Assembly (NCBI RefSeq): GCF_000022265.1
Contig: NC_011979.1
Coordinates: 780,001 to 812,000, forward strand
DNA: 32,000 nt
Source: Geotalea daltonii FRC-32
GTDB taxonomy: Bacteria; Desulfobacterota; Desulfuromonadia; Geobacterales; Geobacteraceae
Direction: 5' to 3'
Shown one piece after another: positions 1 through 28,121 of this stretch. The position numbers and the translations under genes are program-made. The notes below the pieces were generated by a model, which saw only the letters and a list, made by a program, of their open reading frames with translations, did no database searches and was not told where the DNA came from. Each line of letters opens with the position of its first letter. Position 1 is the stretch's first letter.

Positions 1-412
1 GGAAGATATTATATTCCAAGGCGTCCAGATGTTCTTTTGCAACCTTTTTCGCGGCTTTGTCGTTCTTTCCGATTTCCTGAAACTGCGGCAAGGGCCATAC
101 TTCGATATAGCACACTTCAAATGGGTCGAGAACGTTCATCGCTACTGCGTCAGTTCGCTGGTTGGTTAGATGGCGGCGGATGCGCGTTCTAAGCTGTTCG
201 TTGGTTTGCCCGACATAAATCGGTTCCCCATCATAGTCATAGAAGGCATACACGCCCCATATATAATTTCCTAGCTTGGCCGGAGTTTCACCAGAGACGT
301 CAACCACTTTATCGAGAAAACTGGTAAGCGCTTCGCGAAGATGTTTAGTCTCAAAAGGTAATTCAGCTATATCTAAGGTAGGTGGTCTGAAATCATGTTG
401 TTCTTCTGGCAT
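1..412 (-). CDS. GIY-YIG domain nuclease, N-terminal 137 aa (C-terminus cut by window edge); candidate restriction or mismatch endonuclease
   Basis: My own translation of the reverse strand gives MPEEQHDFRPPTLDIAELPFETKHLREALTSFLDKVVDVSGETPAKLGNYIWGVYAFYDYDGEPIYVGQTNEQLRTRIRRHLTNQ...EHLDALEYNIF. GVYAFY...IYVGQT...RTRIRRH...E..N matches the GIY / YVG / Arg / Glu pattern of GIY-YIG nucleases. The ATG at 410-412 overlaps the methyltransferase stop at 412-414 (ATGA). It is absent from the ORF track only because it is open at the window edge. Confidence 0.75.
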   Translation of the reverse strand, partial: MPEEQHDFRPPTLDIAELPFETKHLREALTSFLDKVVDVSGETPAKLGNYIWGVYAFYDYDGEPIYVGQTNEQLRTRIRRHLTNQRTDAVAMNVLDPFEVCYIEVWPLPQFQEIGKNDKAAKKVAKEHLDALEYNIF

Positions 413-1557
413 CAGGCAGCGCACCTCATAGCGGATTTATTTGCATTCAAAACTTGCTCAATGATGTTTTTTGCGATATGGCGCACCACTGGAACCGCTA
501 CACCGTCTCCGGCAAGGTGATACGCATCGTTATATTTCTCAGGCAAATGGTAACTTTCTGGCAAACCCATCAACCTGGCTGCCTCTCTGGGTGAGAGCAA
601 GCGTGTCTTGACTTTATTGCCTTCGACCAAGATGATGATTTGCCGACTCGAACCGCCTGAAGGAGTTCTCAGGCATCCCGCGATATCATCGAAACGTACT
701 TCTGCGCGCTGCCGTTTTATGCCTTCCTTGTCCTTTCGAGTGCGTTTATAGATGGTGCCGACAACGCGCTTTCCAGCTTTCTTCGCTTGGCTGAGCTTTT
801 CAAGATTGATTGGCGACATCATACCGATTATGCGATTCGTTTCAAAAGGTGTGTGCCATTCAACGCCTTTCGGCTCATTCTCTACCATGTCCGAAAATGT
901 CGTCGTGCGCGGTTTGGGAACAGGCAGATTCCACCATAACCATGATGCCCTGGCAGTCTCGGAAAGTAAATCGTAAGAAAGCCCGAGTGCGTCTGGATGC
1001 CAGCGTGGATCAGGAGCCCCAACAAGACGTTTTGGTACTTCTAACGTATTATGTATTGCAATTATGAATAGGCGAGGACGGCTATGCGGAAGAAAAAGAA
1101 CCGCGTCTATCACCATGGGACCACACCTATACCCGGCTTTAACCAGTTCTTCAATGATAATGGATAAGTCTTTTCCGTCGTGGCTCGTTACGGTACCGTA
1201 GACGTTTTCAAGGATAATTGTTTTCGGTGCGCGGCCTTCTTTCCGCAGCTTAGTTATCACATTCCAAAACGGCCAAAACGCTCCTGAACGTTCCCCGGCA
1301 ATACCTGCACCGTTACCGGCAAGTGACAAGTCTTGGCAAGGGAATGACGCCCAAGTTAAATCAGCCGTGCCTAGAAGCTGGGAGGTTTGGATTTTTGCGA
1401 CGTCTTCCACGACAAAATGATCATTTCCACGAAAATAAGTGCGGTAAGAAATAGCTTTTTTCGGGTCAAAGTCGTTGGCAAAAACGCACTCCCACCCCTT
1501 TCCAAGCCCAATTCTTGCCATTCCTCCGCCTGCAAAAAATTCATAAAAGGTTTTCAT
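412..1557 (-). CDS. DNA (cytosine-5)-methyltransferase
   Basis: 381 aa. Motif I FFAGGGM, motif IV SFPCQDLS, motif VI ENVYG, motif VIII HSRPRLFIIA, motif IX RLLSPREAARLMGLP, motif X-like GDGVAVPVV. RBS AGGGGTGG lies upstream of the ATG. Confidence 0.95.
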   Translation of the reverse strand: MKTFYEFFAGGGMARIGLGKGWECVFANDFDPKKAISYRTYFRGNDHFVVEDVAKIQTSQLLGTADLTWASFPCQDLSLAGNGAGIAGERSGAFWPFWNVITKLRKEGRAPKTIILENVYGTVTSHDGKDLSIIIEELVKAGYRCGPMVIDAVLFLPHSRPRLFIIAIHNTLEVPKRLVGAPDPRWHPDALGLSYDLLSETARASWLWWNLPVPKPRTTTFSDMVENEPKGVEWHTPFETNRIIGMMSPINLEKLSQAKKAGKRVVGTIYKRTRKDKEGIKRQRAEVRFDDIAGCLRTPSGGSSRQIIILVEGNKVKTRLLSPREAARLMGLPESYHLPEKYNDAYHLAGDGVAVPVVRHIAKNIIEQVLNANKSAMRCAA

Positions 1558-1627
1558 ACACGGCCACCCCTTTTAAAGCGAATAATATACCAAAAAACCA
1601 AATGAAATGGTATCCAATTTAGTTGTG

Positions 1628-2449
1628 TTATAATTCCAGCCCTAGTTTTTCGGCCTCTTTATTCGGCAACCATTTCATAAACTTGCCACATTCTGTGCAA
1701 ACTACCTTGTAGCGTTTGATTTTTTCAAAGTTGGGAACGTAATTTATAGTTTGATGTTTGCATTCGATTTTTGGCGGGGGTACATATACAGCATCAATGA
1801 GAAAATCTGTAAGCGACACTCGCTGCTCTAATCTTCTCATAGAAATGAATCTATTTGTGCAATCTCCTCCGCCACGAGCCCATTTTTCTTGGAAATAAGG
1901 CAATAAAACAGTTCCAGACGGGAGAAGATACCCGGCATATACACAACCCGGAAAATCTTTTTTCACAAACAGGCGCTTTTCGATTTCTTTCAGAGAGTAT
2001 ACGAACGACTTCGTTTCTTTGCGGAAATTGTCGCCAACTAGCAGATAAATAACCACCATTCCCTTTCTAGCATATTCATATATCTTGTCTTCAAAATAGG
2101 AAATATTGTAATTGGATGCCTGAATCTCGATAGCGGCGGTTATCCAAGTTCCTTCCCAATACACATCTGCCCGTAACGAATCTATGGGATGTTCAAGTTC
2201 GACGATCCCGTGGTTTTTCATCGCCTGTATCGTTTGGTATACAAGCTGTTTCCCCCATACATGGTCTTCGGTTTCTGGTTCCGATTCGCAATCACACTTA
2301 GTAAGGTGTCGGAAGTGCTTAATTTTTAAGGTACAGTCCATAAAAGAAAGACGGCCACCACAACCCTTGCAGGTATATAATGGCTTTCTTTCCGTAACTT
2401 CCCACGCGAACACTTTTGTTCCATCTTCATCAAGGGCTACAAGTGGCAT
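1628..2449 (-). CDS. CoiA-like (PD-(D/E)xK type) nuclease family protein with N-terminal Cys/His zinc ribbon
   Basis: YTCKGCGGRLSF...KIKHFRHL, then ETEDHVWGKQLV...VELEHPI..LRADVYW....AAIEIQASNYN...ARKGMVVIYLL matches the CoiA pattern: zinc ribbon-HFxH, E..H..K, hElE, RADV, AIEIQxS. I moved the start to the internal ATG at 2449, which is preceded by AGGAGG with a 7-nt spacer; the track start at 2506 has no RBS. Confidence 0.7.
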   Translation of the reverse strand: MPLVALDEDGTKVFAWEVTERKPLYTCKGCGGRLSFMDCTLKIKHFRHLTKCDCESEPETEDHVWGKQLVYQTIQAMKNHGIVELEHPIDSLRADVYWEGTWITAAIEIQASNYNISYFEDKIYEYARKGMVVIYLLVGDNFRKETKSFVYSLKEIEKRLFVKKDFPGCVYAGYLLPSGTVLLPYFQEKWARGGGDCTNRFISMRRLEQRVSLTDFLIDAVYVPPPKIECKHQTINYVPNFEKIKRYKVVCTECGKFMKWLPNKEAEKLGLEL

Positions 2450-2494
2450 GCAAGAACCTCCTGTTTTCCCAATAATATACACTGGCAATACGAC

Positions 2495-2523
2495 ATAATA
2501 CGTCATTTACTTTATTTTGCCAA
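2495..2523 (-). promoter_or_regulatory. Sigma70-like promoter for the CoiA-like / methyltransferase / GIY-YIG genes
   Basis: On the minus strand: TTGGCA (2518-2523), 17-nt spacer, TATTAT (2495-2500). It sits about 45 nt upstream of the 2449 start. Confidence 0.4.
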
Positions 2524-2602
2524 TTTCGGCGTAACTGCTTGCCCTACATCTCCAGCGAGATAAATGTTGTAACCACCCGGTTTATTGAATTAATTATTAC
2601 GC

Positions 2603-3214
2603 TTACCGCTTTATATTCCGTGACATCATAAAATTATATACCGTTCCGCGTGACACGGTGAAAATCTTGGATATTGAGGCTAACGAAACTTTTTTGTGAA
2701 GCAGTTCACTTATCTGGCTCTCCATCCCGTCGAGTTTACTTGCGCTTGTCCGCCCTTTTGGCCTTCCAATCTTAACCCCTGCCGCTTTTTTGGCCTCTAA
2801 TGCCCTCCTTGTCCGTTCCGAGATCAAGTCCCGTTCCAGTTCAGCAAAGAGAGAAAACATCGTCAACATCACTTTAGACTGCATATCTTCGTTTCCATTG
2901 GTTACTATATTCTGCTTAATAGCAACAAACCGCACGCTTTTGTCATGTAACCATTTAATAATATTCAATACCTCTACTGTACTCCTGCCGATTCGAGATA
3001 GTTCGGACACGATAACGGTGTCGCCAGCCCCCAATCGCCCCATCAGAAGGTCAATCAACCTTTCTCTTGTTCCTTTCCGACTGGAAACTTCCGCCTCGAT
3101 AAAATCATCAACCTGCCATCCGTTCCGCTGGGCGTAATTCAGTATCTCATACCGTTGATTTTGAAGATCCTGTTGGCTGGTACTGACTCTCAAATATGCG
3201 ATTGTTCGGCTCAT
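2603..3214 (-). CDS. Small serine recombinase (resolvase/invertase family) with C-terminal HTH
   Basis: 203 aa. AYLRVSTSQQD catalytic-serine motif, VSELSRIGRS, C-terminal SKIFTVSRGTVYNF helix-turn-helix. The start ATG at 3212-3214 overlaps the stop of the upstream gene (ATGA). Confidence 0.93.
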   Translation of the reverse strand: MSRTIAYLRVSTSQQDLQNQRYEILNYAQRNGWQVDDFIEAEVSSRKGTRERLIDLLMGRLGAGDTVIVSELSRIGRSTVEVLNIIKWLHDKSVRFVAIKQNIVTNGNEDMQSKVMLTMFSLFAELERDLISERTRRALEAKKAAGVKIGRPKGRTSASKLDGMESQISELLHKKVSLASISKIFTVSRGTVYNFMMSRNIKR

Positions 3215-3609
3215 TCATTACCTCCTGCCAGCAGTGTTGTTGTTTTTATGCCTTTATCTACTGATATAATTGAAATATTTTTCAATCCCTTCGCCTTCGC
3301 ACATTCGATCATGTGTAGAGTACCTGGAGACTTGCCATCCCAAACGGCAATGAGTGCGTCAGCAATTTCAGCCATTTGTTCATTTCGTAATATCCCCGCG
3401 CCTTTGCCGTACCGTTTCCAATCCGCCGCAACCCGAATATTATCAATACCGTTCTCAGTAGCGTAGCGAGACGCTAGGCAATCAATACCCCTTGCCATTC
3501 CATCAACGATGGCGGTTATATTCAGCCCACGGTTCCGCGCCTCATCAAGCGCAGTACGGATAAGCTCATAATCAGTTATTCCTCTGCTACCAGCAACGAT
3601 GACCTTCAT
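3211..3609 (-). CDS. DUF2493-type SLOG-fold protein (Smf/DprA-LOG superfamily)
   Basis: MKVIVAGSRGITDYELI....IVDGMARGIDCLASRYA....ADWKRYGKGAGILRNEQMAEIADALIAVWDGKSPGT.HMI resembles the DUF2493/SLOG signature: a Rossmann-like GSR start, a G.A.G.D loop, and an RN..M tail. The start is set at the ATG at 3609, preceded by GGAGG with a 9-nt spacer. Confidence 0.72.
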   Translation of the reverse strand: MKVIVAGSRGITDYELIRTALDEARNRGLNITAIVDGMARGIDCLASRYATENGIDNIRVAADWKRYGKGAGILRNEQMAEIADALIAVWDGKSPGTLHMIECAKAKGLKNISIISVDKGIKTTTLLAGGNE

Positions 3610-3795
3610 GCTGTCCTGCCTCCAATTTACCGCCGAAAAATCCGTCACAATTCGTAAGTGTCTAGGAATACTATCAAATTGTAATTTTAATGGTCAGCAG
3701 ATGTCAATGGTTTCACCTGTTTTATTGGAGCATGCCAACCATTGAAACTGTTGGTTTTCTTGGTTAATAATTTTGGCTCAATTGGTGTTTTTTTG

Positions 3796-3823
3796 TTGAC
3801 ATGGATTATTTTTAGTGTATTGT
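3796..3823 (+). promoter_or_regulatory. Sigma70-like promoter for the plus-strand island operon (3955-5893)
   Basis: TTGACA (3796-3801), 16-nt spacer, TATTGT (3818-3823). Confidence 0.35.
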
Positions 3824-3835
3824 GCTGCCCCCTGA

Positions 3836-3885
3836 AATTGGAGGGCCAAACAACAGTGTCTTGTTGTGGCCAATATAACCCCATA
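3836..3885. repeat. Site X: imperfect-palindromic recombination-site-like sequence (attL-like)
   Basis: The right arm TGGCCAATATAACCCCA (3867-3883) is 16/17 identical to, and in the same orientation as, 9029-9045. TTGTGGCCAATATA (3864-3877) equals the reverse complement of 9004-9017. The left arm ATTGGAGGGCCAAACAAC is a degenerate copy of the partner arm. Confidence 0.65.
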
Positions 3886-3954
3886 ATTTTAATGCTGACG
3901 GCGCCGTCACACACATGCAGTGCAACGCTGTAACCCACTAAAAGGAGAAGAAAA

Positions 3955-4371
3955 ATGATAACTCAACATTTGCAATCAGGCACTATCAACCCATTACCAC
4001 CTGAAATAATTGGGACGGCGGACCTCTGGCCGCAAGCTGCACAGGAGCAACTTGCCAAGTTTATTCTGGAAGTATGCAAGCTACAGCCGCGCCTTGCGCG
4101 GACTGCACCGCTCCGAACAAGTAAAAAGAAGGCTCATAACAATAATATTCCATCGCTGAAGGAGACATACCCAATGAAAAAACGCACTAAAAGCAGAATC
4201 GCATCTTACCCGCTGCCACCTGAATTGCTCGGCTCAGTGGACCCGTGGCCAGCAGCAATTCAGGAACAGCTTGTTTCGTTTGTCCTTGTAAAAAGGAAAA
4301 GGACATACCGTTACGAGCCGAATAACCTTTTTGACGCCTTTCTAATGTCAGGGCTTACCGTCGGCAATTGA
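3955..4371 (+). CDS. Hypothetical protein with an internal tandem duplication (two ~30-aa repeats)
   Basis: Strong RBS AAGGAGAAG lies before the ATG. The repeats are PLPPEIIGTADLWPQAAQEQLAKFILEV and PLPPELLGSVDPWPAAIQEQLVSFVLVK. No family recognised. Confidence 0.6.
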   Translation: MITQHLQSGTINPLPPEIIGTADLWPQAAQEQLAKFILEVCKLQPRLARTAPLRTSKKKAHNNNIPSLKETYPMKKRTKSRIASYPLPPELLGSVDPWPAAIQEQLVSFVLVKRKRTYRYEPNNLFDAFLMSGLTVGN

Positions 4372-4374
4372 GCT

Positions 4375-4410
4375 TGACCGGCAGGACGGTTCATACCGTC
4401 CTGCCGGTCA
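4375..4410. other. Perfect 15-bp GC-rich stem / 6-nt loop hairpin
   Basis: TGACCGGCAGGACGG-TTCATA-CCGTCCTGCCGGTCA lies directly after the stop at 4371. No T-tract follows, so it is not a canonical intrinsic terminator. Confidence 0.7.
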
Positions 4411-4470
4411 GATGAAATGCGAGTTAGAAACGCACAAACAAATTATCAGCAAATTAAAAGGAGAAAGACA

Positions 4471-5007
4471 ATGGCAACAAACAAAAGTGAAATATCCACG
4501 ACACCAACACGAGTAGAAGTAAGGAAAACCGCAGAAGCACAGACACTTATAGGTTTGAAGGAACGTTGGGATGCTGGTGACAACGACTTGTACTATTCCG
4601 CTGAAATCAACGAATATCTGTTTGTCACTGACGAAAACATAATCAGCGTCTGGAAAGAGGCTAAGGGATCTCATGGACGTACATACGAGTATGTAAGCAC
4701 ATATTACTGGCGTGAAATTGAATCCTTGTCTGTTGCCAACCTACCAGCATTTAATAAGGATTCAGACCAACGGTATTTTGCTGAGTTCTATCACTACAAA
4801 ATAGACATGCTTTTCAAGCTGCTTGCTGGGGCCAGTAATTATGCATATTCGTATGATTGCAAGCCAAAACATATTTGGCGGATGAATGACATGTTGAGGG
4901 GAAAGGATTTTAAGGGAGCAGCAGAAGCTATCATCTCGGATTTTATTAGAGAATTCAATTACAATGATGGTGGAGACCCTGCGGTGATGGACGAGCTATG
5001 GATATAA
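4471..5007 (+). CDS. Hypothetical protein (178 aa), no recognisable family
   Basis: The ORF has RBS AAAGGAGAAAG 7 nt before the ATG at 4471. The track start at 4417 lacks an RBS. It runs in the same direction as its neighbours. Confidence 0.55.
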   Translation: MATNKSEISTTPTRVEVRKTAEAQTLIGLKERWDAGDNDLYYSAEINEYLFVTDENIISVWKEAKGSHGRTYEYVSTYYWREIESLSVANLPAFNKDSDQRYFAEFYHYKIDMLFKLLAGASNYAYSYDCKPKHIWRMNDMLRGKDFKGAAEAIISDFIREFNYNDGGDPAVMDELWI

Positions 5008-5027
5008 TGTCGTGCCAGTAACTCATG

Positions 5028-5079
5028 GCAGCTCAAAATGGGTTTTTGATGGCCTCGAACAATTTTGAGCTGCTTTTGG
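5028..5079 (+). terminator. 12-bp stem hairpin with large loop followed by TTTT; terminator or Rep-recognised origin hairpin
   Basis: GCAGCTCAAAAT (5028-5039) pairs with ATTTTGAGCTGC (5062-5073), followed by TTTTGG. It lies between the hypothetical gene and the HUH gene. Confidence 0.45.
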
Positions 5080-5208
5080 AATCAATTTTATAAATAGTAA
5101 CGAACCACAGTTCCATCAGCAATGCCTATGGGATTTCCAGAGCTGAATTTAAGCCCGTTGTTTGCCTTGATGGCAGAATATTATCTAATTCAATACGAAG
5201 GTAACTAT

Positions 5209-5715
5209 ATGATATTACAACACAACCCATCGCATAGAACCATATATGCCGACTTTATTAAACTCAACGGTCCCTTTGCGTACTTCATAACTCTGACATT
5301 TCAGAGACTCCAAACTATTGAAACATGCACTCAACAGATTAATTACCTGATTTACCTTCTGAATAATAAAATCTGTGGCAGAAACAATAATGCTGAATTT
5401 CTTCAAGGCTTCTGCTTTTTTGAAAAGCATAAGACATCAGCGAATAATCCTTTACACAGTCACATTATCATTAAAGATGACAGTAAACTTGATCTGGAGT
5501 CAAAGGCATCTTTTGCTGACCACTTCTGGACCATGATAAATAAAGTCCGGGCAGTAAAAAGCAATTGTGTTACCGATAAGAAAGCCTTTAACCCGAAATG
5601 CTGCGATATTAGACGCGCACATGATCAAGACGGCCTCATAAAGTACGTGACAAAGATATTTGAGAAACCTATTGATTACAACTACTTCAGGCCAATTGGA
5701 AAAAATGGGATATGA
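5209..5715 (+). CDS. HUH-superfamily endonuclease, rolling-circle Rep-like (pC194/pUB110-type motif set)
   Basis: Motif I FITLTF, motif II (HUH) HSHIIIK, motif III LIKYVTK, in the canonical order and spacing. The start is set at the ATG at 5209 (GAAGG 7 nt upstream); the alternative at 5122 has no RBS. Confidence 0.62.
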   Translation: MILQHNPSHRTIYADFIKLNGPFAYFITLTFQRLQTIETCTQQINYLIYLLNNKICGRNNNAEFLQGFCFFEKHKTSANNPLHSHIIIKDDSKLDLESKASFADHFWTMINKVRAVKSNCVTDKKAFNPKCCDIRRAHDQDGLIKYVTKIFEKPIDYNYFRPIGKNGI

Positions 5716-5725
5716 GAGGCATGAG

Positions 5726-5893
5726 ATGATTAAATCTATCTACGTTTCAAAAAAGACTGGCCGACGACAGTACCGCATCTGCCTTTACCTACCGGAAGAA
5801 CTGATCAGAAAGCTCGACCGCTGGACAGTTCAGCACCGATTTGCAGGGACAACTGGTCAGTCCATTACTACAATGCTGAATATGCTGCTGTGA
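5726..5893 (+). CDS. Ribbon-helix-helix (CopG/Arc-like) small DNA-binding protein
   Basis: 55 aa: MIKSIYVSKKTGRRQYRICLYLPEELIRKLDRWTVQHRFAGTTGQSITTMLNMLL. A beta-strand (RICLYLPEEL) followed by two helices fits the RHH layout. RBS GAGG lies 7 nt upstream, directly after the Rep-like stop. Confidence 0.5.
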   Translation: MIKSIYVSKKTGRRQYRICLYLPEELIRKLDRWTVQHRFAGTTGQSITTMLNMLL

Positions 5894-5897
5894 GTCG

Positions 5898-5907
5898 ATC
5901 TTGATAC
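5898..5907 (+). promoter_or_regulatory. Candidate double-strand-origin nick site ATCTTGATAC
   Basis: It contains the CTTGATA core of the pC194/pUB110-family (and phiX174-like) nick sequence. It lies in the intergenic gap right after the Rep-like/RHH pair. I found no other copy of this motif by eye in the island. A short motif like this can occur by chance. Confidence 0.35.
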
Positions 5908-5966
5908 CAAATGATTTTATCTCGGTTTTGAAGATGCAAAGACGATGCATGGCATGCTGGCTTCAC

Positions 5967-6287
5967 TTATTTGACGAAAGCTTTCACGATTCGATGAAGA
6001 ATTTTCAACTGATCGTCGGTCACGGTTTCCAGCACGCTGTCAATCTGGTCAATGCTGGCTGGTCGCGCCTCGTGATGCGAAAACTCGAATAAATCCTTTA
6101 TTTCCACGTCCAGAGCCTGCGATATATTTTCCAGTGCTTCCAGTGACGGCGAACTCCTGCCAACCTCAATAAAACTCACATATTTCGGATCTACACCGAT
6201 CTTCTCCGCAAGCTTCTCTTGAGTCACCTTCCTGAGCTTGCGGAGTTCTTTTATCCGCGCTCCAAGCAATTCCTTTGTCGTTTTCAT
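5967..6287 (-). CDS. XRE-family helix-turn-helix transcriptional regulator
   Basis: LGARIKELRKLRKVTQEKLAEKIGVDPKYVSFIEVGRSSPSLEALENISQAL is a classic Cro/C1 HTH. The start is at 6287, preceded by GGGGGAG. Confidence 0.9.
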   Translation of the reverse strand: MKTTKELLGARIKELRKLRKVTQEKLAEKIGVDPKYVSFIEVGRSSPSLEALENISQALDVEIKDLFEFSHHEARPASIDQIDSVLETVTDDQLKILHRIVKAFVK

Positions 6288-6340
6288 GGCTCCCCCAGTT
6301 CCGGTGATGATCGGACTTATCAGAGCCAAAAAGAACTAAC

Positions 6341-6434
6341 CTAGTATTAGCATATAATTGACATTACTAATTATTTGTTATAGTCATCTAACAGCAAATT
6401 AGTCATTTCCGTCTTTGTCAAACATTCAATTAGT
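6341..6434. promoter_or_regulatory. Divergent promoter/operator region between the XRE gene and the lipoprotein gene
   Basis: TTGACA (6358-6363), 15-nt spacer, TATAGT (6379-6384) on the plus strand. ACTAAT (6366-6371) and its complement ATTAGT (6398-6403, 6429-6434) recur in related contexts: ACTAATTATTTG and AATTAGTTATTTG. Confidence 0.4.
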
Positions 6435-6488
6435 TATTTGAGTACATCCGGTTATACCGGACACATCACCCCATCGGAGGTATCTACA

Positions 6489-6929
6489 ATGCAGCAGAAT
6501 GTCGAGAGCGGCCGTTGTTCATCCAACCTACTGAAAATCCTGTTCATTGCTATGTCGATCACTGCCTTGCTCATCACCGGTTGTTCTGCTGCACCGCCGG
6601 ACAAAATGATGCAGGAATACGTTACGATCCAGTCCAATGACGGGAAAGTTCTTTACAAGTCAAACGGGTCGCTCAAGGATGTGATGGATAATTATTGGGC
6701 TCCGCTGGCAAAATCAAAGATCAAGACCAGCAAATCGGGTGGGGCATACGTGTTTAGCTTCAAATCTAAGAACTACGATAAAGTTGAGTTCACGATTGCC
6801 GAGAATGGCAGCTTGAAGAAGGTTTTGATGAAAGGTGGGTCGGATTCAATCGAAATCGCTGATGATAAACCGGATGCGATGCACAATATTGCAATGGGAA
6901 TGTTCCAGTTTGACGCCGTAAATCAATAA
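6489..6929 (+). CDS. Lipoprotein, unknown function
   Basis: Signal peptide with lipobox LLITGC. RBS GGAGG lies 9 nt before the ATG at 6489. Confidence 0.7.
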   Translation: MQQNVESGRCSSNLLKILFIAMSITALLITGCSAAPPDKMMQEYVTIQSNDGKVLYKSNGSLKDVMDNYWAPLAKSKIKTSKSGGAYVFSFKSKNYDKVEFTIAENGSLKKVLMKGGSDSIEIADDKPDAMHNIAMGMFQFDAVNQ

Positions 6930-6961
6930 CCTACTGAATTATATGTACTGTTTCAAAATGG

Positions 6962-6990
6962 TGGGCTGGCGGCAGTATGCCGCCAGCCCA
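6962..6990. terminator. Bidirectional intrinsic terminator between convergent genes
   Basis: TGGGCTGGCGGC-AGTAT-GCCGCCAGCCCA forms a 12-bp GC-rich stem with T-rich flanks on both strands. Confidence 0.7.
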
Positions 6991-7090
6991 TTAGTATTTC
7001 CTCGTTGTATGGCTGTTTCCTCAACCAAATTCTGGATCTTGTCGCAGGATCATCCCTTTTGAACCGTGTAACTGCCTTTAACTGCGTATG

Positions 7091-8932
7091 CTAGGGCTGA
7101 AAGTCACCGATATCTGATTTGCCAACAAATGCAAAAAAATTCTCGTCACCCTGCTTATCAACCCAAAGCTTGTATTTGGCGGCCTCGTTCGGCGAAGGCG
7201 TGATCATGCGATAATTGCCATTTTTAAAACGTATAATGAAAAATCTATTGTTCCGATCCTTCAAGTTGTTGAAATAATCAGTAAGCCTTGTAGCAGATTG
7301 ATCGGCAGCTTCAATACTTAAACCGCCAGCTTTTTGGGCGGCAAAATCTACCTCCATTTCGTATGCGGTATTAATCGTGCTGTTCGATGGCATATATCCT
7401 ACCGGATAAACATCTATCCGCTCAACAAGCTGCCTAATCTCGCCACGTAATTTCATTCTGACATCAATTGCCTGCTCTGCTGGAACAGAACCTATAAACT
7501 GATAAAGCTCCTTCAACCCCTGTATTGATTGTTCGATTGTTGTTTGCTTGTGTGACAGTTGGTTTATTTCCTGATTTATAATTGATCGTTCAGCAGGAAT
7601 GGCGGTTTGCCTTGTAACTAATTTGTTAATTTCAGCCATGGTTCTATCTCGTACAGCTTGGTTCTCAGCTTGACTGAGTGTTTCATACAAGACATTTATT
7701 CTGCGTTCAAGTTGTTTAAATTCATCATTTATAACGGCCAAACGTCCTTGTAAACCCGCAATCTTGGATTCCTTTTGTATTGCATCGTCAGTCAACAGGT
7801 CAGCGATATTAAGGCCAGAACAGAAGCTCAAGAATGCATCTTCAAATTCTGGGTATCGGAAACTATGATACTCACATCCCATTTTTCTTCTGGCGTTGTC
7901 ACATACCAAATACATTCCTGCTTTTGTTTGATTCCCTTTGTTGACAAACTGCATAGGTTTCCCGCAGTATCCGCATTTAGCAAGTCCACCAAACAAATTA
8001 CTCAACTTACCGTTTTTACCGCCAAAGTCTTTGTTACTCTTGCAGCGCTCTTGAACTCTATAAAACACTTCGTCTGCAATGATACGCGGATAGTAATCGC
8101 TGAATACCTCGCCGGTTGGTTTTCGTACCTTTTCCCCTGCTTCCTCATCTGTTACCATTATATGTGGCTCAAATTCCCCTAATACGGCCTTATTGTGTAA
8201 GATCTTCTTGACGTAACTTGGAAACCAACCGTTATCGCCTTTCCAAGCAGGAATTTTTTCCGTGTTCAATTTTTTAGCAATTGAAGCCGCACCGATTCCT
8301 TGAAGTGCCATATTAAAAATACGCCTGACAATTGCAACCCTGTATTCTATTCCATTAAATTTGATCTTGCTTTCATCGAGTTTTAGCCACGCAGGGGCGC
8401 GAGCAGTAAGTTTTTTTTCAGCGATGTTTTCCCGTTTAGCTTTCCAATTGTCAATATGTCTGATAGATTTAGTCAAACTTTCGTCATAAGAACGCGCCAT
8501 TATTCCAAGACTTGTAAAAACTTGGGAAATATTGTCATTCCATGTTTCATGGCGATACTCACTGCGATCAATCAAGGTTACAACTATAATGCCATAACTT
8601 GTTATTTCTCTTAACTGGTCAAATGCAGTCATGATTTTCTGACGGCTTAAACGATCCAGTGATTCAACTAGTAATATAGAGTTTTTAGGTATTTTACCTC
8701 TTTTGGCAAGTTCCAAGAACTCACCCAATGCTCCACGAGTCCGGTGTTTTCCGGAAAATGCTGAAAGCCCCAAATCTTTTAACGTCAGTGATTCATCTAA
8801 TACCAAACCTTTTTCTTGAGCGTACAGCCGCGATTTTTCCATTTGACGCGCAAGGCTGTACCCTTTAAGTTGCTCAAGTGTGGAAAAACGAATGTATGAA
8901 TAGCAGCGTGGAGTGTTATAGTCTTGGGTCAT
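7091..8932 (-). CDS. Large serine recombinase (integrase)
   Basis: 613 aa. N-terminal resolvase domain ([11 protein letters not shown] catalytic Ser, [10 protein letters not shown]), a recombinase domain, a zinc ribbon (CGYCGKPM...YLVC....C) and a long coiled-coil region. It lies directly next to the island/comM junction. Confidence 0.95.
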
Positions 8933-8999
8933 TATAAGCCTTTACATACATTGGATAACTTAGCGTTATTTTCAGCTAAAAAGCGAATTAATGTCAAGG

Positions 9000-9045
9000 G
9001 GTATATTGGCCACAATATACTAATATTATGGCCAATAAAACCCCA
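9000..9045. repeat. Site A: near-perfect palindromic recombination site (attP-like, two P-type arms)
   Basis: TATTGGCCACAATAT-ACTA-ATATTATGGCCAATA (9004-9037) has 15-nt arms with one mismatch. Both arms belong to the same half-site family as site X right arm and site B left arm. A TTGACA box on the minus strand (8992-8997) abuts it. Confidence 0.7.
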
Positions 9046-9070
9046 ACTACAACGAGACAAATATTCAGTA

Positions 9071-9105
9071 GGTTATATTAGCCATAATATATTGATGATC
9101 GGTCC
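9071..9105. repeat. Site B: island/chromosome junction (attR-like hybrid: island-type arm + comM arm)
   Basis: The left arm GGTTATATTAGCCATAATAT is AT-rich, and its reverse complement matches the site X right arm (TGGCTAATATAACC versus TGGCCAATATAACC). The right arm ATGATCGGTCCTCCCGGG is GC-rich and encodes the genuine MIGPPG of the ComM P-loop. Confidence 0.65.
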
Positions 9106-9970
9106 TCCCGGGTCGGGCAAGACCATGCTGGCCCGGCGGATTCCTTCCATTCTCCCCACCATGTCCTTCAACGAGGCGATAGAAACTTCGAAAATCTACA
9201 GTGTCATGGGGCTACTAGATCGTGACCGGGCGCTGGTTTCCGGCCGTCCCTTCCGCAGCCCACACCATACCATCTCCGATATCGGTCTGATTGGCGGCGG
9301 GAATACGCCAAAACCTGGTGAAGTGAGCCTCTCCCACAATGGTGTGCTGTTCCTCGACGAACTGCCCGAGTTTAAAAAGCATGTGCTGGAAGTGCTGCGC
9401 CAGCCCCTTGAGGACGGTCGGGTCACCATTTCCCGCGCCCTGACCTCACTTACCTATCCGTCCCGGATCATGCTCGTCACTGCCATGAATCCCTGTCCCT
9501 GTGGATACCTGGGGGATCCCCTCCACCAGTGTTCATGCACCCCGGTAATGATCCACCGTTACCGCTCCCGCATCTCAGGGCCCCTCCTGGACCGCATTGA
9601 CATCCACATCGAGGTGCCAGCCGTCAAATACCGAGATCTGGCTGACCGCAGCGAGGGCGAAGGCTCTGCAGCCATAGCAGGCAGGGTAGAGCAGTCGAGA
9701 AACCTGCAGCTGGAGCGTTTCAAGGGAAGCAAAGTTCACTGCAACGCGCAGATGACGCCACGCTTTATCAAGAAATTCTGCGAACCGGACGCAGCCGGTC
9801 AGCGTATGCTGGAGATGGTCACTGACCGTCTCGGCCTCTCCGCGCGGACCTATACCCGCATTCTCAAGGTCGCCCGCACCATCGCCGATCTGGAGGGGAG
9901 CGACGGGATCAGGGAAAATCATATCTCGGAAGCAATCCAATATCGCAGCCTGGATCGGAAGATGGTTTGA
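9083..9970 (+). pseudogene. comM: comM/yifB (Mg-chelatase-like AAA+ ATPase), 3-prime ~296 codons only; the N-terminal ~40 percent is split off by the island
   Basis: [19 protein letters not shown] (Walker A), [11 protein letters not shown] (Walker B), [23 protein letters not shown] and the C-terminal [20 protein letters not shown] are all ComM/YifB hallmarks. Upstream of 9083 the open frame (track TTG start at 8924) is island sequence with no ComM N-terminal domain. Confidence 0.88.
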
Positions 9971-22339: not shown

Positions 22340-23833
22340 ATGAAAATTTTGCTGGTTTATCCGCACTATCCGGATACTTTCTGGAGTTTTCGCCATGCAT
22401 TGAAGTTCATCGGCAGGAAGGCCAGTTTTCCCCCCTTGGGTCTTCTTACTGTGGCTGCCATGCTCCCGGCCCAATGGGAAAAGAAGCTTGTGGATATGAA
22501 CGTAGCCGAGCTGACCGACAGGGATATCAAGTGGGCTGACCTTGTCTTCATCAGTGCCATGAGTATTCAACGGGAGTCGGCAGAAACGGTTATCAGTCGT
22601 TGTCGTAATCTGGGGGTGAAAACCGTTGCCGGTGGTCCCCTTTTCATCGCCTTCCACGATCAATTTTCCCAAGTGGATCATCTGGTGCTGGGAGAGGCAG
22701 AGATAACCCTCCAGAGATTTCTTGACGATCTGGAAATGGGCGTGCCCGGCCACATTTATCAAGACGAACGCCGCGCCGATCTGGCCGACACCCCTGTGCC
22801 ACTTTGGGAACTGGCAGATCTGCGCAAATATGCGGGAATGAACATTCAGTATTCCAGGGGGTGCCCCTTCGACTGCGAGTTTTGCGACATCACAGGGCTG
22901 TTTGGGCGCAAACCCCGGACCAAGCAAACTGCTCAGCTGCTGGTGGAACTGGAAAGTCTGTATTCAAGAGGTTGGCGTGGATCAATCTTTTTTGTAGACG
23001 ATAATTTCATCGGCGACAAGCAAAAACTTAAAAGGGAAATTCTGCCTGCCATAAGGGGCTGGATGGAGAAGAGAAACCATCCTTTCTATTTTTACACGGA
23101 GGCGTCCATAGACCTTGCCGATGACGGGGAATTGATGCGGATGATGGTCGAGGCCGGTTTCCAGGAGGTCTTCATCGGCATAGAAACCCCCCATGGCGAG
23201 GTGCTGACCGAGATTGGAAAAGTACAGAATAAGAACCGGGACCTTCTTGTTTCGGTAAAACGCATACAGCAGGCCGGCCTGCAGGTGCATGGCGGTTTTA
23301 TCGTCGGTTTCGACAGTGACCCGCCAACGATCTTCGACAGCCAGATCAGGTTTATACAGGAGAGCGGCATTGCCACGGCTATGGTCGGGATACTCACCGC
23401 CCTTCGCGGCACAAGGCTTTATCAGCGTCTGCGCCAGGAGGGAAGGCTTATTGGCGATGCTACCGGCAATAATATGGCCGTCTCCCTCAACTTCGTGCCG
23501 AGGATGGAAAGGTCTGCCCTGATAGGCGGCTATCGTGCCTTGCTCGATCATATCTACTCTCCGGATAATTATTACAAGCGGGTGAAGAAGCTTCTCAAGG
23601 AATACCGGCCGCTATACACCGGCAGATTCAATGTTCAACGGGGCTACCTGCCAGCTCTCTGGAAGTCAATTTTTTTTCTGGGTGTCCTGGGCAAGGAGCG
23701 GGTCCAATTCTGGAACCTTTTCTTCTGGTCGCTTTTGCGCAAGCCTCGGCTTTTCCCGTTGGCCATCACCTATGCCATATATGGTTTTCATTTCAGAAAA
23801 ATCACAGAAAAGCTCAGAGAAAATGTGGCCTAA
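22340..23833 (+). CDS. B12-binding-domain radical SAM protein (DUF4070-type C-terminus)
   Basis: The N-terminal MKILLVYPHYP....PPLGLLTVAAML is a cobalamin-binding Rossmann start. The radical SAM cluster motif is GCPFDCEFCD (CxxxCxxC). Confidence 0.88.
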   Translation: MKILLVYPHYPDTFWSFRHALKFIGRKASFPPLGLLTVAAMLPAQWEKKLVDMNVAELTDRDIKWADLVFISAMSIQRESAETVISRCRNLGVKTVAGGPLFIAFHDQFSQVDHLVLGEAEITLQRFLDDLEMGVPGHIYQDERRADLADTPVPLWELADLRKYAGMNIQYSRGCPFDCEFCDITGLFGRKPRTKQTAQLLVELESLYSRGWRGSIFFVDDNFIGDKQKLKREILPAIRGWMEKRNHPFYFYTEASIDLADDGELMRMMVEAGFQEVFIGIETPHGEVLTEIGKVQNKNRDLLVSVKRIQQAGLQVHGGFIVGFDSDPPTIFDSQIRFIQESGIATAMVGILTALRGTRLYQRLRQEGRLIGDATGNNMAVSLNFVPRMERSALIGGYRALLDHIYSPDNYYKRVKKLLKEYRPLYTGRFNVQRGYLPALWKSIFFLGVLGKERVQFWNLFFWSLLRKPRLFPLAITYAIYGFHFRKITEKLRENVA

Positions 23834-23875
23834 AATAGTTAGTAAAATTTTAATAACAAATTACAATTAAAAATG

Positions 23876-23903
23876 TTGACATTGATGTTGGTTAGATTAA
23901 AAT
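23876..23903 (+). promoter_or_regulatory. Sigma70-like promoter in the rSAM / histidine-kinase intergenic region
   Basis: TTGACA (23876-23881), 16-nt spacer, TAAAAT (23898-23903), with AT-rich upstream flanks. Confidence 0.4.
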
Positions 23904-24005
23904 AAGTTTAAATTTTGTGGGCCGACAGGAACCTGTTTACAGGCAACTGCAACGATATCTGGCGGAATCGAATGGGAAAAAATAGAAAATGCATCTGATG
24001 CTTTG

Positions 24006-27027: not shown

Positions 27028-27678
27028 TTAGAGCTTGTGCAGATCGATCATCTTTTCGTTGCAAAGATATTCGGTCTGGGAGATACGGGTTGTCCTTGCA
27101 AGTTTTGCTACAATATCACGGATTTTTCCCATCTCCTGTCGAATCTGCTGTAGAGCGGACGATGCATGCTCATGATGGGAATTATTGTCTTTTTCCAGCA
27201 TATAGAGGGAACCGTAAATAGATGTTAAGGGATTATTGATTTCATGGCTCAGGGCAATGGCCATTTCCTTGAACAGTTTCAGCTTTTCAAGTTCCATGGA
27301 CTGCCGGGCAAGGCTTTGGGCAGCCAGATGGGATCTTATCCTTGCCAGCAGTTCCTGGGGATAAAATGGTTTTACAATATAATCCACGGCACCGGCCTCA
27401 AAGCCCTTTACCTTTTCTCTTTCTGCATCCATGGCAGTGATGAAGATGATGGGGGTGTCTCTGGTTTGTTCAGCATGTTTGAGCTTTCTGCACACCTCGT
27501 AGCCGTTAAGTGCAGGGAGATGAACATCGAGCAAAATGAGGTCAGGAGGATTTTCCAGGGCAATGGCAATACCTTGCGCTCCGTCATCACTGAAATCGAG
27601 CACATAGCTGCCCGATAAAATATCTGCCAACTGGGCCTGTGCAACACTGCTGTCTTCTATAACCAGTATTCTTGCCAT
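27028..27678 (-). CDS. Response-regulator receiver fused to a DHp/HisKA-like domain, no ATPase domain
   Basis: REC RILVIEDS...LILLDVHLP..NGYEV...PIIFITA...DYIVKPF, then the H-box-like ALSHEINNPLTSI. The protein ends ~75 aa later without N/G1/G2 boxes. Confidence 0.85.
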   Translation of the reverse strand: MARILVIEDSSVAQAQLADILSGSYVLDFSDDGAQGIAIALENPPDLILLDVHLPALNGYEVCRKLKHAEQTRDTPIIFITAMDAEREKVKGFEAGAVDYIVKPFYPQELLARIRSHLAAQSLARQSMELEKLKLFKEMAIALSHEINNPLTSIYGSLYMLEKDNNSHHEHASSALQQIRQEMGKIRDIVAKLARTTRISQTEYLCNEKMIDLHKL

Positions 27679-27953
27679 GAATGAGCCCTTTATCTTCGCG
27701 AAAAAAACAATATTCTATCTATTTCATATACCTTGTCAACGTTGGAAAGAGAGATGAGGGCGGAAATATAAATGAAAAAGTTGAAATTTAGTTATAGTGA
27801 ACAAATTATGGTTGTATTAAAAAACACACAGTGGGGGTGGGTGATGGAAAAGTCCACCCAACGGCCTTGAAAATGCAGTTATTGCGTGAGTTGTGGTGGG
27901 CTGCGAAAATGATGTGCATGTGCCGGAAGTAGCTTTTTAAACCATTTTTTAAC

Positions 27954-27982
27954 TTGACTAGAAGAAGGTCCTTAAGTAGAAT
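27954..27982 (+). promoter_or_regulatory. Sigma70-like promoter for the CoA-transferase gene
   Basis: TTGACT (27954-27959), 17-nt spacer, TAGAAT (27977-27982), and an A/T-rich UP-like tract upstream. It implies a ~130-nt leader. Confidence 0.5.
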
Positions 27983-28121
27983 GCGGTTCTAATTTTTGCC
28001 GGAAGACGGTTCCTCCCACTGTCTTTAGCGGTCTGAATAATCAGATTTCAATGTCGTTCTTATTACAAAAGATCTTTGCTGATCTTGTTTGTAAACATCA
28101 AAACAAAACAGGAGGAAGAAA

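Follow-up and report, generated by a model that had tools for sequence, protein, structure and literature searches.

A probable pair of complete attP sites with different core dinucleotides in a comM-integrated large serine recombinase element of Geotalea daltonii FRC-32

Why should an element that has already integrated into a host gene still carry an intact, attP-like recombinase site right beside its own end? This question is raised by a 32-kb stretch of Geotalea daltonii FRC-32 DNA (contig NC_011979.1, positions 780,001 to 812,000; hereafter the window), in which a genomic island ends inside the gene comM (yifB) and three sites assembled from one recombinase half-site, denoted X, A, and B, lie along the island. 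The original prediction, made from the sequence alone, interpreted the order of these sites as the trace of two elements that had integrated in tandem or one inside the other. Our analysis leads to a different answer: the island is one ~10.5-kb comM-integrated element, driven by a large serine recombinase (LSR), and we consider it likely that this single element possesses two attP sites, with the cores CT and TT, such that A is one of its own attachment sites and not a scar.

We start from the half-site itself. The 19-nt half-site used for scanning, TTRTGGCCAATAWAACCCC, is present in four copies in the window, compared to 0.04 copies expected by chance, and none of 100 shuffled sequences reached four. 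All of the copies described in the original prediction were recovered, at 3864–3882 (+ strand, no mismatches) in X, at 8997–9015 (− strand, two mismatches) and 9026–9044 (+ strand, no mismatches) in the left and right arms of A, and at 9069–9087 (− strand, three mismatches) in the left arm of B. The 16-nt core of the half-site, TGGCCWATAWAACCCC, is confined to this element among the 2.3 Mb of loci fetched for this analysis. The recombinase, encoded at 7091–8932 (− strand), is a 613-residue protein that has an exact counterpart (100% identity) in G. daltonii FRC-32 and matches the Pfam families Resolvase, Recombinase, and Zn_ribbon_recom with 58.6, 64.6, and 49.7 bits, respectively, each over its cut-off.

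The two ends of the element can be placed with the help of the host gene. At ~9.0–9.5 kb of the window, the G+C content climbs from ~0.39 to 0.53–0.59, a step that fits an island boundary at B, and B is the attR (9070–9115), comprising one arm (the P arm) of an attP that we refer to as site 2 (9070–9090), the centre ATTG with core TT, and the B′ arm contributed by comM (9095–9115). The left end was found outside the window, on L001, a 19-kb contig that carries these same genes and reaches 9.2 kb past the left edge of the window. There, beyond genes for a GIY-YIG protein and a PLD/Nuc protein, a fifth copy of the half-site (TTGTGGCCTATAAAACCCC, L001 11318–11336, ~1.43 kb to the left of window position 1) is fused to the 5′ part of comM, which ends with the sequence ...GGT GGG CAC AAT ATT TTG AT|ATTGTGGCCTATAAAACCCC, and this junction is the true attL. 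Joining the left part of attL to the right part of attR at the TT core yields an in-frame YifB/ComM protein of 509 residues, which covers positions 1–499 of the 499 in TIGR00368 with 652 bits (cut-off 362); on the basis of this match, the 3′ part of comM is assigned to 9092–9970 (+ strand), beginning with the Leu codon in which the crossover took place. With the true attL on L001 and B as attR, the element measures ~10.5 kb, of which the window shows the right-hand ~9.1 kb. The locus thus displays what defines an integrated LSR element, namely, hybrid attL and attR that rebuild an uninterrupted target gene, together with a pseudo-palindromic attP sharing their 2-bp core. The earlier reading of the half-sites as recombinase sites, and of B as an attR in comM, is therefore borne out for an LSR. 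The same cannot be said of its reading of X as an attL-like site, as the true attL is on L001, and what lies to the left of X is a conserved resolvase/YspA promoter block with no comM sequence.

What, then, is A? We refer to A as site 1 (8998–9043), an intact attP with arms at 8998–9018 and 9023–9043, the centre ACTA, and the central dinucleotide CT. The original prediction had correctly described it as a complete attP-like palindrome but had given it a size of 15+4+15; the arms are really 21 nt long, resulting in a 21+4+21 palindrome in which 18/21 arm positions are complementary. A spacer of 26 bp (9044–9069) separates site 1 from site 2, with the centres 72 bp apart. Before integration, site 2 would have read TAGGTTATATTAGCCATAATAT-ATTG-ATATTGTGGCCTATAAAACCCC (attP2, core TT), and the corresponding G. 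daltonii comM attB-TT sequence is GCCGGTGGGCACAATATTTTGATGATCGGTCCTCCCGGGTCG. In the direction from P to P′, the centre is ACTA (core CT) in site 1 and ATTG (core TT) in site 2; the two sites have nearly the same arms and different crossover cores. By eye, a run of CCCC is located at approximately positions 19–22 in the P arms and a run of CC(T)CCC at approximately positions 10–15 in the comM arms; in characterized half-sites, the motif for the zinc-ribbon domain lies ~5 bp nearer the centre in attB than in attP (PMC3783163). We take the native attP region of the element to comprise two full sites with a distance of 72 bp between their centres, immediately upstream of the LSR gene. The proposal that the element carries mimics of its own target also finds an explanation here, as an inner motif, CA(C/T)AATAT, is common to the P arms and to the B arm of comM; this motif reads H-N-I in the comM frame and so gives rise to the apparent likeness in translation. 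We also observe that an open frame at 8924–9970 (+ strand), starting from a TTG codon, spans A, the spacer, and B into the 3′ part of comM, from which a truncated ComM without the N-terminal domain could in principle be produced.

We hypothesize that the element would enter comM through whichever of its attP cores equals the first two bases of the host Leu codon (CTN or TTR). In G. daltonii, where the codons at the crossover are ATT TTG, site 2 recombined with comM to give the attL outside the window and the attR at B, and site 1, the A of the original prediction, stayed intact.

Relatives of the element allow this to be examined from natural junctions. In one of these (L005/L006, from groundwater metagenomes, LSR 50% identical), the element was recovered as a circular contig of 7,474 bp in two rotated copies, each with a terminal overlap of 127 nt, and two intact palindromes of the same half-site, with centres 70 bp apart, lie directly upstream of the LSR gene. 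This circle has genes for YspA, a small recombinase, an N4/N6 methylase, a Rep-like protein, and the LSR, along with both attP sites. It has the appearance of a minimal member of the family in its free state, and the element of the window itself looks plasmid-like, since a relative exists as a circular contig; we note that the circular form was seen only for this 50%-identical relative. The centre-to-centre spacing is 72 bp in the window and also in L004 and L168. In L004 (LSR 57% identical, integrated in a target other than comM), the recombinase-proximal site is a hybrid attR, and an intact palindrome is found 72 bp past attL. In L003/L168 (LSR 61% identical, integrated in comM), the proximal site has likewise crossed over, marked by the shared flank AATGTCAAGGG, and the spare distal site of L168 reads GGATTATATTAGACACAATAT-ATTA-ATAATGTAATCAATATAACC at 72 bp from the centre of attL. 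The TT core of this spare site had been predicted before the attL end of L168 was read, and was borne out.

The closest relatives come from short contigs in read-archive assemblies (L174–L177). L174 encodes a PLD protein that is 94% identical to that of the G. daltonii element, and its DNA is ~92% identical over ~400 nt to the reconstructed attP region of the window, in a match that starts at the centre of site 1, takes in site 2, and ends within the PLD gene. On the other side of the site 1 centre, upstream, the contig continues into the comM gene of another host (...GGT CAC AAC CTC CT|A ATATTATGGCCAATAAAACCCC), such that comM is fused to an A-type P′ arm, followed by the spacer and then an intact site 2, which is identical to the reconstructed attP2 except at 2/46 positions. 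This junction, the decisive one, shows that the same element lineage entered one host via site 2 (the window) and another via site 1 (L174). L175/L176 were integrated via site 1 as well, with site 2 intact and its centre reading ATTA, and L177 via site 2, as in the window. Overall, the homologue of site 1 is the crossover site in L174, L175/L176, L168/L003, and L004, whereas the window and L177 were integrated via site 2. Judged from these natural junctions, crossover at both sites in nature is directly evident.

These observations bear on the alternative that two elements lie here in tandem or nested, with A left behind by a double integration followed by deletion of one copy, and with a 5.2-kb X–A module that excises by X × A recombination. 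There is a basis for this proposal, as the P′-type arms at X and A are indeed direct repeats, measured here at 18/20 positions (3864–3883 vs 9026–9045). However, the succession of attP, 26 bp, and attR that had been taken as the scar of such events recurs as two intact sites in the circular relative and at a conserved 72-bp spacing, and the L174 junction identifies A-type sites as genuine crossover sites of this lineage. Furthermore, the gene order in L003/L168 and L004 (LSR, small open reading frames, XRE, Rep-like gene, further open reading frames, YspA and/or the small recombinase, restriction–modification genes, and PLD) is kept and runs unbroken across X, and the 7.5-kb circle L005 unites YspA, the small recombinase, the Rep-like gene, and the LSR, that is, genes from both sides of X, which is not what would be expected of separate elements at 1–3835 and 3886–9003. 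Synteny across 3836–3885 therefore holds, and as for the presence of a site at this position, X is absent in L004 but has an equivalent in L003/L168. In composite islands, the units occur separately and an internal site shares its core with an end site; among the relatives examined, we found no such separate units, and the cores are GT at X, CT at A, and TT at B. As these cores are mutually incompatible, recombination of X with either A or B, from which excision of the module had been predicted, is not expected, the more so as X has no proper left half-site.

A further point in favor of two elements is that the left block of the island is shared with an element that differs elsewhere. L172, an element integrated in radC, shares the block from PLD to the resolvase at 83% nucleotide identity over 4.5 kb, whereas its LSR and replication genes are very different, as is its target. 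The shared cargo block covers approximately −1259 to 3215 and 3654–3758 of the window and 1059–5620 of L172 (PLD, GIY-YIG, methylase, CoiA, resolvase). However, the similarity stops at ~3758, inside the conserved block next to the resolvase and away from X, such that the breakpoint is not at the site at which two elements would have been joined. The two halves of the island thus appear, from these comparisons, to have partly separate histories through mosaic exchange of the cargo half, which fits homologous or resolvase-mediated recombination between co-resident relatives. In addition, a second related element, in radC, is found in a G. daltonii sample (L169 549–860, also L170 and L171), from the Logan run that also holds L001, and G. 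daltonii appears to hold both a comM-type and a radC-type element. Its sites belong to the half-site family GGTYAAAWGGTAYACT, with an attL core of TT and an intact CT palindrome 57 bp away. Taking all of this into account, we consider a tandem or nested origin of the locus to be very improbable, and we retain a single element with two attP sites as our interpretation.

If both sites are used, the question becomes why an element should keep two. The answer appears to lie in the target, as the comM core is formed by bases 1 and 2 of a conserved Leu codon within a 10-residue comM motif. This codon is TTG in G. daltonii and in L177, CTC in the host of L168, and CTA in L174 and L175, and the host allele matches the site used in 5/5 close relatives. 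Of the 48 distinct comM contexts among the fetched loci, 30 have the core CT, 13 have TT, four have AT (Ile), and one has GT (Val), and intact comM genes of both main kinds are present (TT in L012, CT in L132). Serine integrases require a perfect match between attP and attB at the central 2 bp, and sites that differ only there are orthogonal (PMC3936721). All of the dual-site elements in comM or radC (12/12) carry the {CT, TT} pair, including distant comM elements with a second full site (L059/L117, L118, L131, and L103, and less clearly L066), in which the spacings range from 43 to 105 bp. The pair is found as well in the two radC-targeting elements, which have different half-sites: in L172, CT was used and TT kept intact, and in L169, TT was used and CT kept intact. 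Among elements with other or unassigned targets, the cores are CT/TT in L112, CT/AT in L004, and CT/GC/GA in L109, which has three sites, and they always differ. (The three recombinase sites of L109, at 4715–4805, are spaced at 45-bp intervals, as two intact palindromes and one hybrid.) Arm sequences, spacing, and the position of each core (CT or TT) with respect to the LSR gene all vary while the pair persists, which argues against simple inheritance of the arrangement. We infer that the pair is kept so that an element targeting a coding sequence tolerates a synonymous C/T difference at the crossover. That this natural orthogonal attP pair covers CTN and TTR hosts, with the LSR perhaps also acting as a repressor via the spare attP and X, is an explanation toward which we lean.

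Several observations weigh against this interpretation. L004 pairs CT with AT rather than with TT, and L109 and L130 have other combinations, in elements to which no target has been assigned. The dual-site examples are related by descent, and their counts do not represent independent events. Most of the sampled comM-targeting relatives show one recognizable site within 130 nt of the junction, such that the dual site is recurrent and not universal. X has a counterpart in L003/L168 but in none of the other relatives examined for it (L004, L005, L172, and L169), and more than one role would suit it. All of the promoters discussed below are consensus matches only. Finally, recombination activity is read throughout from natural junctions, and our statements about it should be understood accordingly.

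An intact palindrome upstream of a recombinase gene could also have a purely regulatory function. Site 1 abuts a promoter-like site of the LSR gene at 8968–8997 (− strand), a 10/12 consensus match only, in which the −35 element TTGACA (8997–8992) directly adjoins the left arm of site 1, and the motif ATGTCAAGGG beside this arm (P1) is conserved in L003 and L004. As A sits against this −35 element, it may additionally autoregulate the LSR. The stronger proposal is that A is an accessory or regulatory site only, either an operator of the LSR promoter or an architectural site resembling res II/III, and never takes part in crossover. This position against the −35 element would suit such a role, and many relatives have an intact palindrome between the crossover site and the start of the LSR gene. 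On the other hand, the same site is the crossover site in ~92%-identical L174, as well as in L175/L176, L168, and L004, at odds with a res-type arrangement, in which the extra sites never cross over, and regulation alone would leave unexplained why the {CT, TT} pairing is matched to the Leu codon families. We therefore find an exclusively regulatory A unlikely, and we prefer an attP that may have a regulatory role alongside its crossover role.

X presents a different problem. It spans 3836–3885 and has one good P′-type half-site (3861–3881), the centre TGTC (core GT), and a degenerate left part that lacks the inner CACAATAT motif. Its arm matches that of A at 18/21 positions. In the left part, only the G-rich outer motif is kept, without the CA(C/T)AATAT of all true arms and of the comM B arm, and the spacing of the GGCC motifs is 24 rather than 22. 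The right flank of X and the flank of the P′ arm of site 2 have TGCTGAC in common. An equivalent is found in the same place in L003/L168 (L003 16714–16734), where it matches the P arm of its own element at 18/21 positions and has the core GA, and between the window and L003 the X arm forms a local conservation peak of 15–16/21 against an intergenic background of 6–8/21. We found no X-like site in L004, L005, L172, or L169, and no partner site with a GT core in the window. Approximately 13 nt upstream of the start of X is a promoter-like match (TTGACA-16-TATTGT, 3796–3823, + strand, again a 10/12 consensus match only) that faces X and the genes at 3955–5715.

X is a solitary conserved half-site, and in our reading, which we hold with low confidence, it is most likely an operator or a vestige rather than an element boundary. 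Of the roles considered, an operator bound by the recombinase leads, at a level that we would place somewhat short of probable. Nearly as likely, in our view, X could be what remains of a former element end or of a duplicated P′ arm, now in decay and with no present function. The degenerate left arm, the GGCC spacing of 24, the occurrence in two lineages only, and the TGCTGAC flank in common with site 2 would all suit a relic, and it is the right arm that does not, being sharply conserved between elements with LSRs only 61% identical, in a poorly conserved intergenic region. We have much less confidence that X is a working attL-like site, which would, with a directionality factor, free the half with the replication and recombinase genes from the restriction–modification half, or serve in module exchange between co-resident relatives. 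Its P′-type arm does track the att arms of its own element in both the window and L003, and the left part of the L003 equivalent has, by eye, GGGGTATAA ~5 bp nearer the centre, which is a B-type geometry. However, a working site is difficult to reconcile with a core of GT (window) or GA (L003) when the att sites have CT and TT, with a left arm that has lost its inner motif, with the missing GT-core partner, and with the absence of X from the four relatives named above, and we judge it quite improbable.

The remaining genes of the element lie on both sides of X. Those for replication and regulation occupy 3955–6929, with open reading frames at 3955–4371, 4417–5007, and 6438–6929, a Rep-like gene at 5122–5715, and an XRE gene at 5967–6329 (− strand). 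The Rep-like product matches PF23343 with 20.8 bits, under the cut-off of 27.8, and the frame at 3955–4371, which adjoins X, is an orphan for which a search for relatives returned Geob_0715 only. The cargo and maintenance genes of the same element (412–3648, − strand) encode a C5 methylase (412–1557), a CoiA-like nuclease (1628–2506), a small serine recombinase (2603–3214), for which the top NCBIfam match is a Mpi-type invertase model, under its cut-off, and YspA/SLOG (3211–3648); left of the window, these are followed by the GIY-YIG and PLD/Nuc genes and then attL. The cargo (window 412–2506, L001 9479–10201) resembles a C5-methylase restriction–modification set that also includes a CoiA-like nuclease and a GIY-YIG protein, and the relative L173 has an additional Vsr mismatch endonuclease (1609–2016). 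Upstream of YspA and the resolvase, a block at 3654–3758, which includes a leftward promoter-like site (3707–3678), is conserved in the window, L003, L004, L005, and L172, with the motifs TGTCTAAGAATAC, ATGTCAATGG, and ACTGTTGGTTTT, and is a candidate for the res site or promoter region of the small recombinase. For several small open reading frames of the element, a search of the family library gave no match, and no candidate for a recombination directionality factor emerged. Searches of viral-contig, plasmid, and phage-family libraries returned no close relatives of the LSR or of the Rep-like protein, and a metagenome scan gave, among the matches listed, only relatives at ≤46% identity.

Some further features of the window were also recorded. 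Between the open reading frames at 3955–4371 and 4417–5007 lies an inverted repeat (4375–4410) with perfectly matching 16-nt arms and a loop of 4 nt, which is likely a hairpin or a protein-binding site. A perfect 14-nt inverted repeat (ATAACCTACTGAAT) has one copy just past the open reading frame at 6438–6929 (6926–6939) and the other in the spacer and the outer edge of the left arm of B (9063–9076), and is not conserved in L004, L005, or L172. A weak position weight matrix match at 6449–6469 (score 12.3) was taken as noise. In the host DNA, which otherwise has a G+C content of 0.52–0.58, this value drops locally to ~0.42 at 23501–24000 and 27501–28000.

Serine integrases are prized because attP × attB recombination is specific and one-way, and the requirement for a 2-bp match has usually been viewed as a constraint, which engineers exploit. 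If our interpretation of the two sites is correct, an element with two orthogonal attPs would no longer be blocked from integration by a synonymous C/T difference in the host, and its host range would widen without any relaxation of site specificity. The CT and TT sites together cover 43/48 of the sampled comM alleles, compared to 30 or 13 for either site by itself, and this would explain how elements that target coding sequences cope with codon drift across hosts. There is also a caution here for annotation pipelines that assume one attP per integrase, as tandem insertion is not the only way in which an intact attP can come to lie next to an attR.

It is instructive to compare this arrangement with known systems in which several recombinase sites occur together. 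SCCmec/Ccr composite islands have repeated recombinase sites inside one island, with units that are bounded by compatible sites and are also found separately. At the res sites of Tn3/gamma-delta, an autoregulated promoter region contains several adjacent palindromes to which the recombinase binds, and only subsite I crosses over; A at the LSR promoter and X at the promoter of the replication genes might be seen as analogous, with the difference that here both attP sites serve for crossover. The ssrA islands of Dehalococcoides are described as serine-recombinase-built and tandem or composite (PMC3146451), and the present island departs from these and from SCCmec/Ccr in having an incompatible internal site, X, and units that, among the relatives examined, were not found on their own. 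In its target gene, by comparison, the island agrees with the comM-targeting LSR elements of Durrant et al. 2022 (PMC10083194), where comM/YifB is reported as the commonest target, hit by 12.4% of the site-specific LSRs predicted there, along with an enrichment of competence genes among the targets. Taken by itself, the island is thus an ordinary representative of an already known group. The passages of that study that a term search returned make no mention of paired attP sites or of a link between the core and a Leu codon, and a nonexhaustive literature search returned no description of a natural element with two orthogonal attPs or of a link to Leu codon families, and nothing relevant on comM with LSRs beyond Durrant 2022. 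The LSR modules of phiC31, Bxb1, A118/LI, and SPbeta are alike in having a Resolvase–Recombinase–Zn-ribbon protein, a pseudo-palindromic attP of ~46–50 bp beside the integrase gene, a shorter attB in a host gene, crossover at a 2-bp core, and hybrid attL and attR. However, these have one attP, whereas the element described here has two complete sites at a fixed distance, with different cores, and natural junctions suggest that both are used. The closest parallel to such a pair is found in engineered orthogonal att pairs (phiC31 SIRA and the Bxb1 GT/GA landing pads; PMC3936721), in which one integrase likewise acts on pairs separated only by their central dinucleotide. Those pairs are man-made for ordered assembly, whereas the pair described here is natural, resides on one element, and appears to serve coverage of target alleles.

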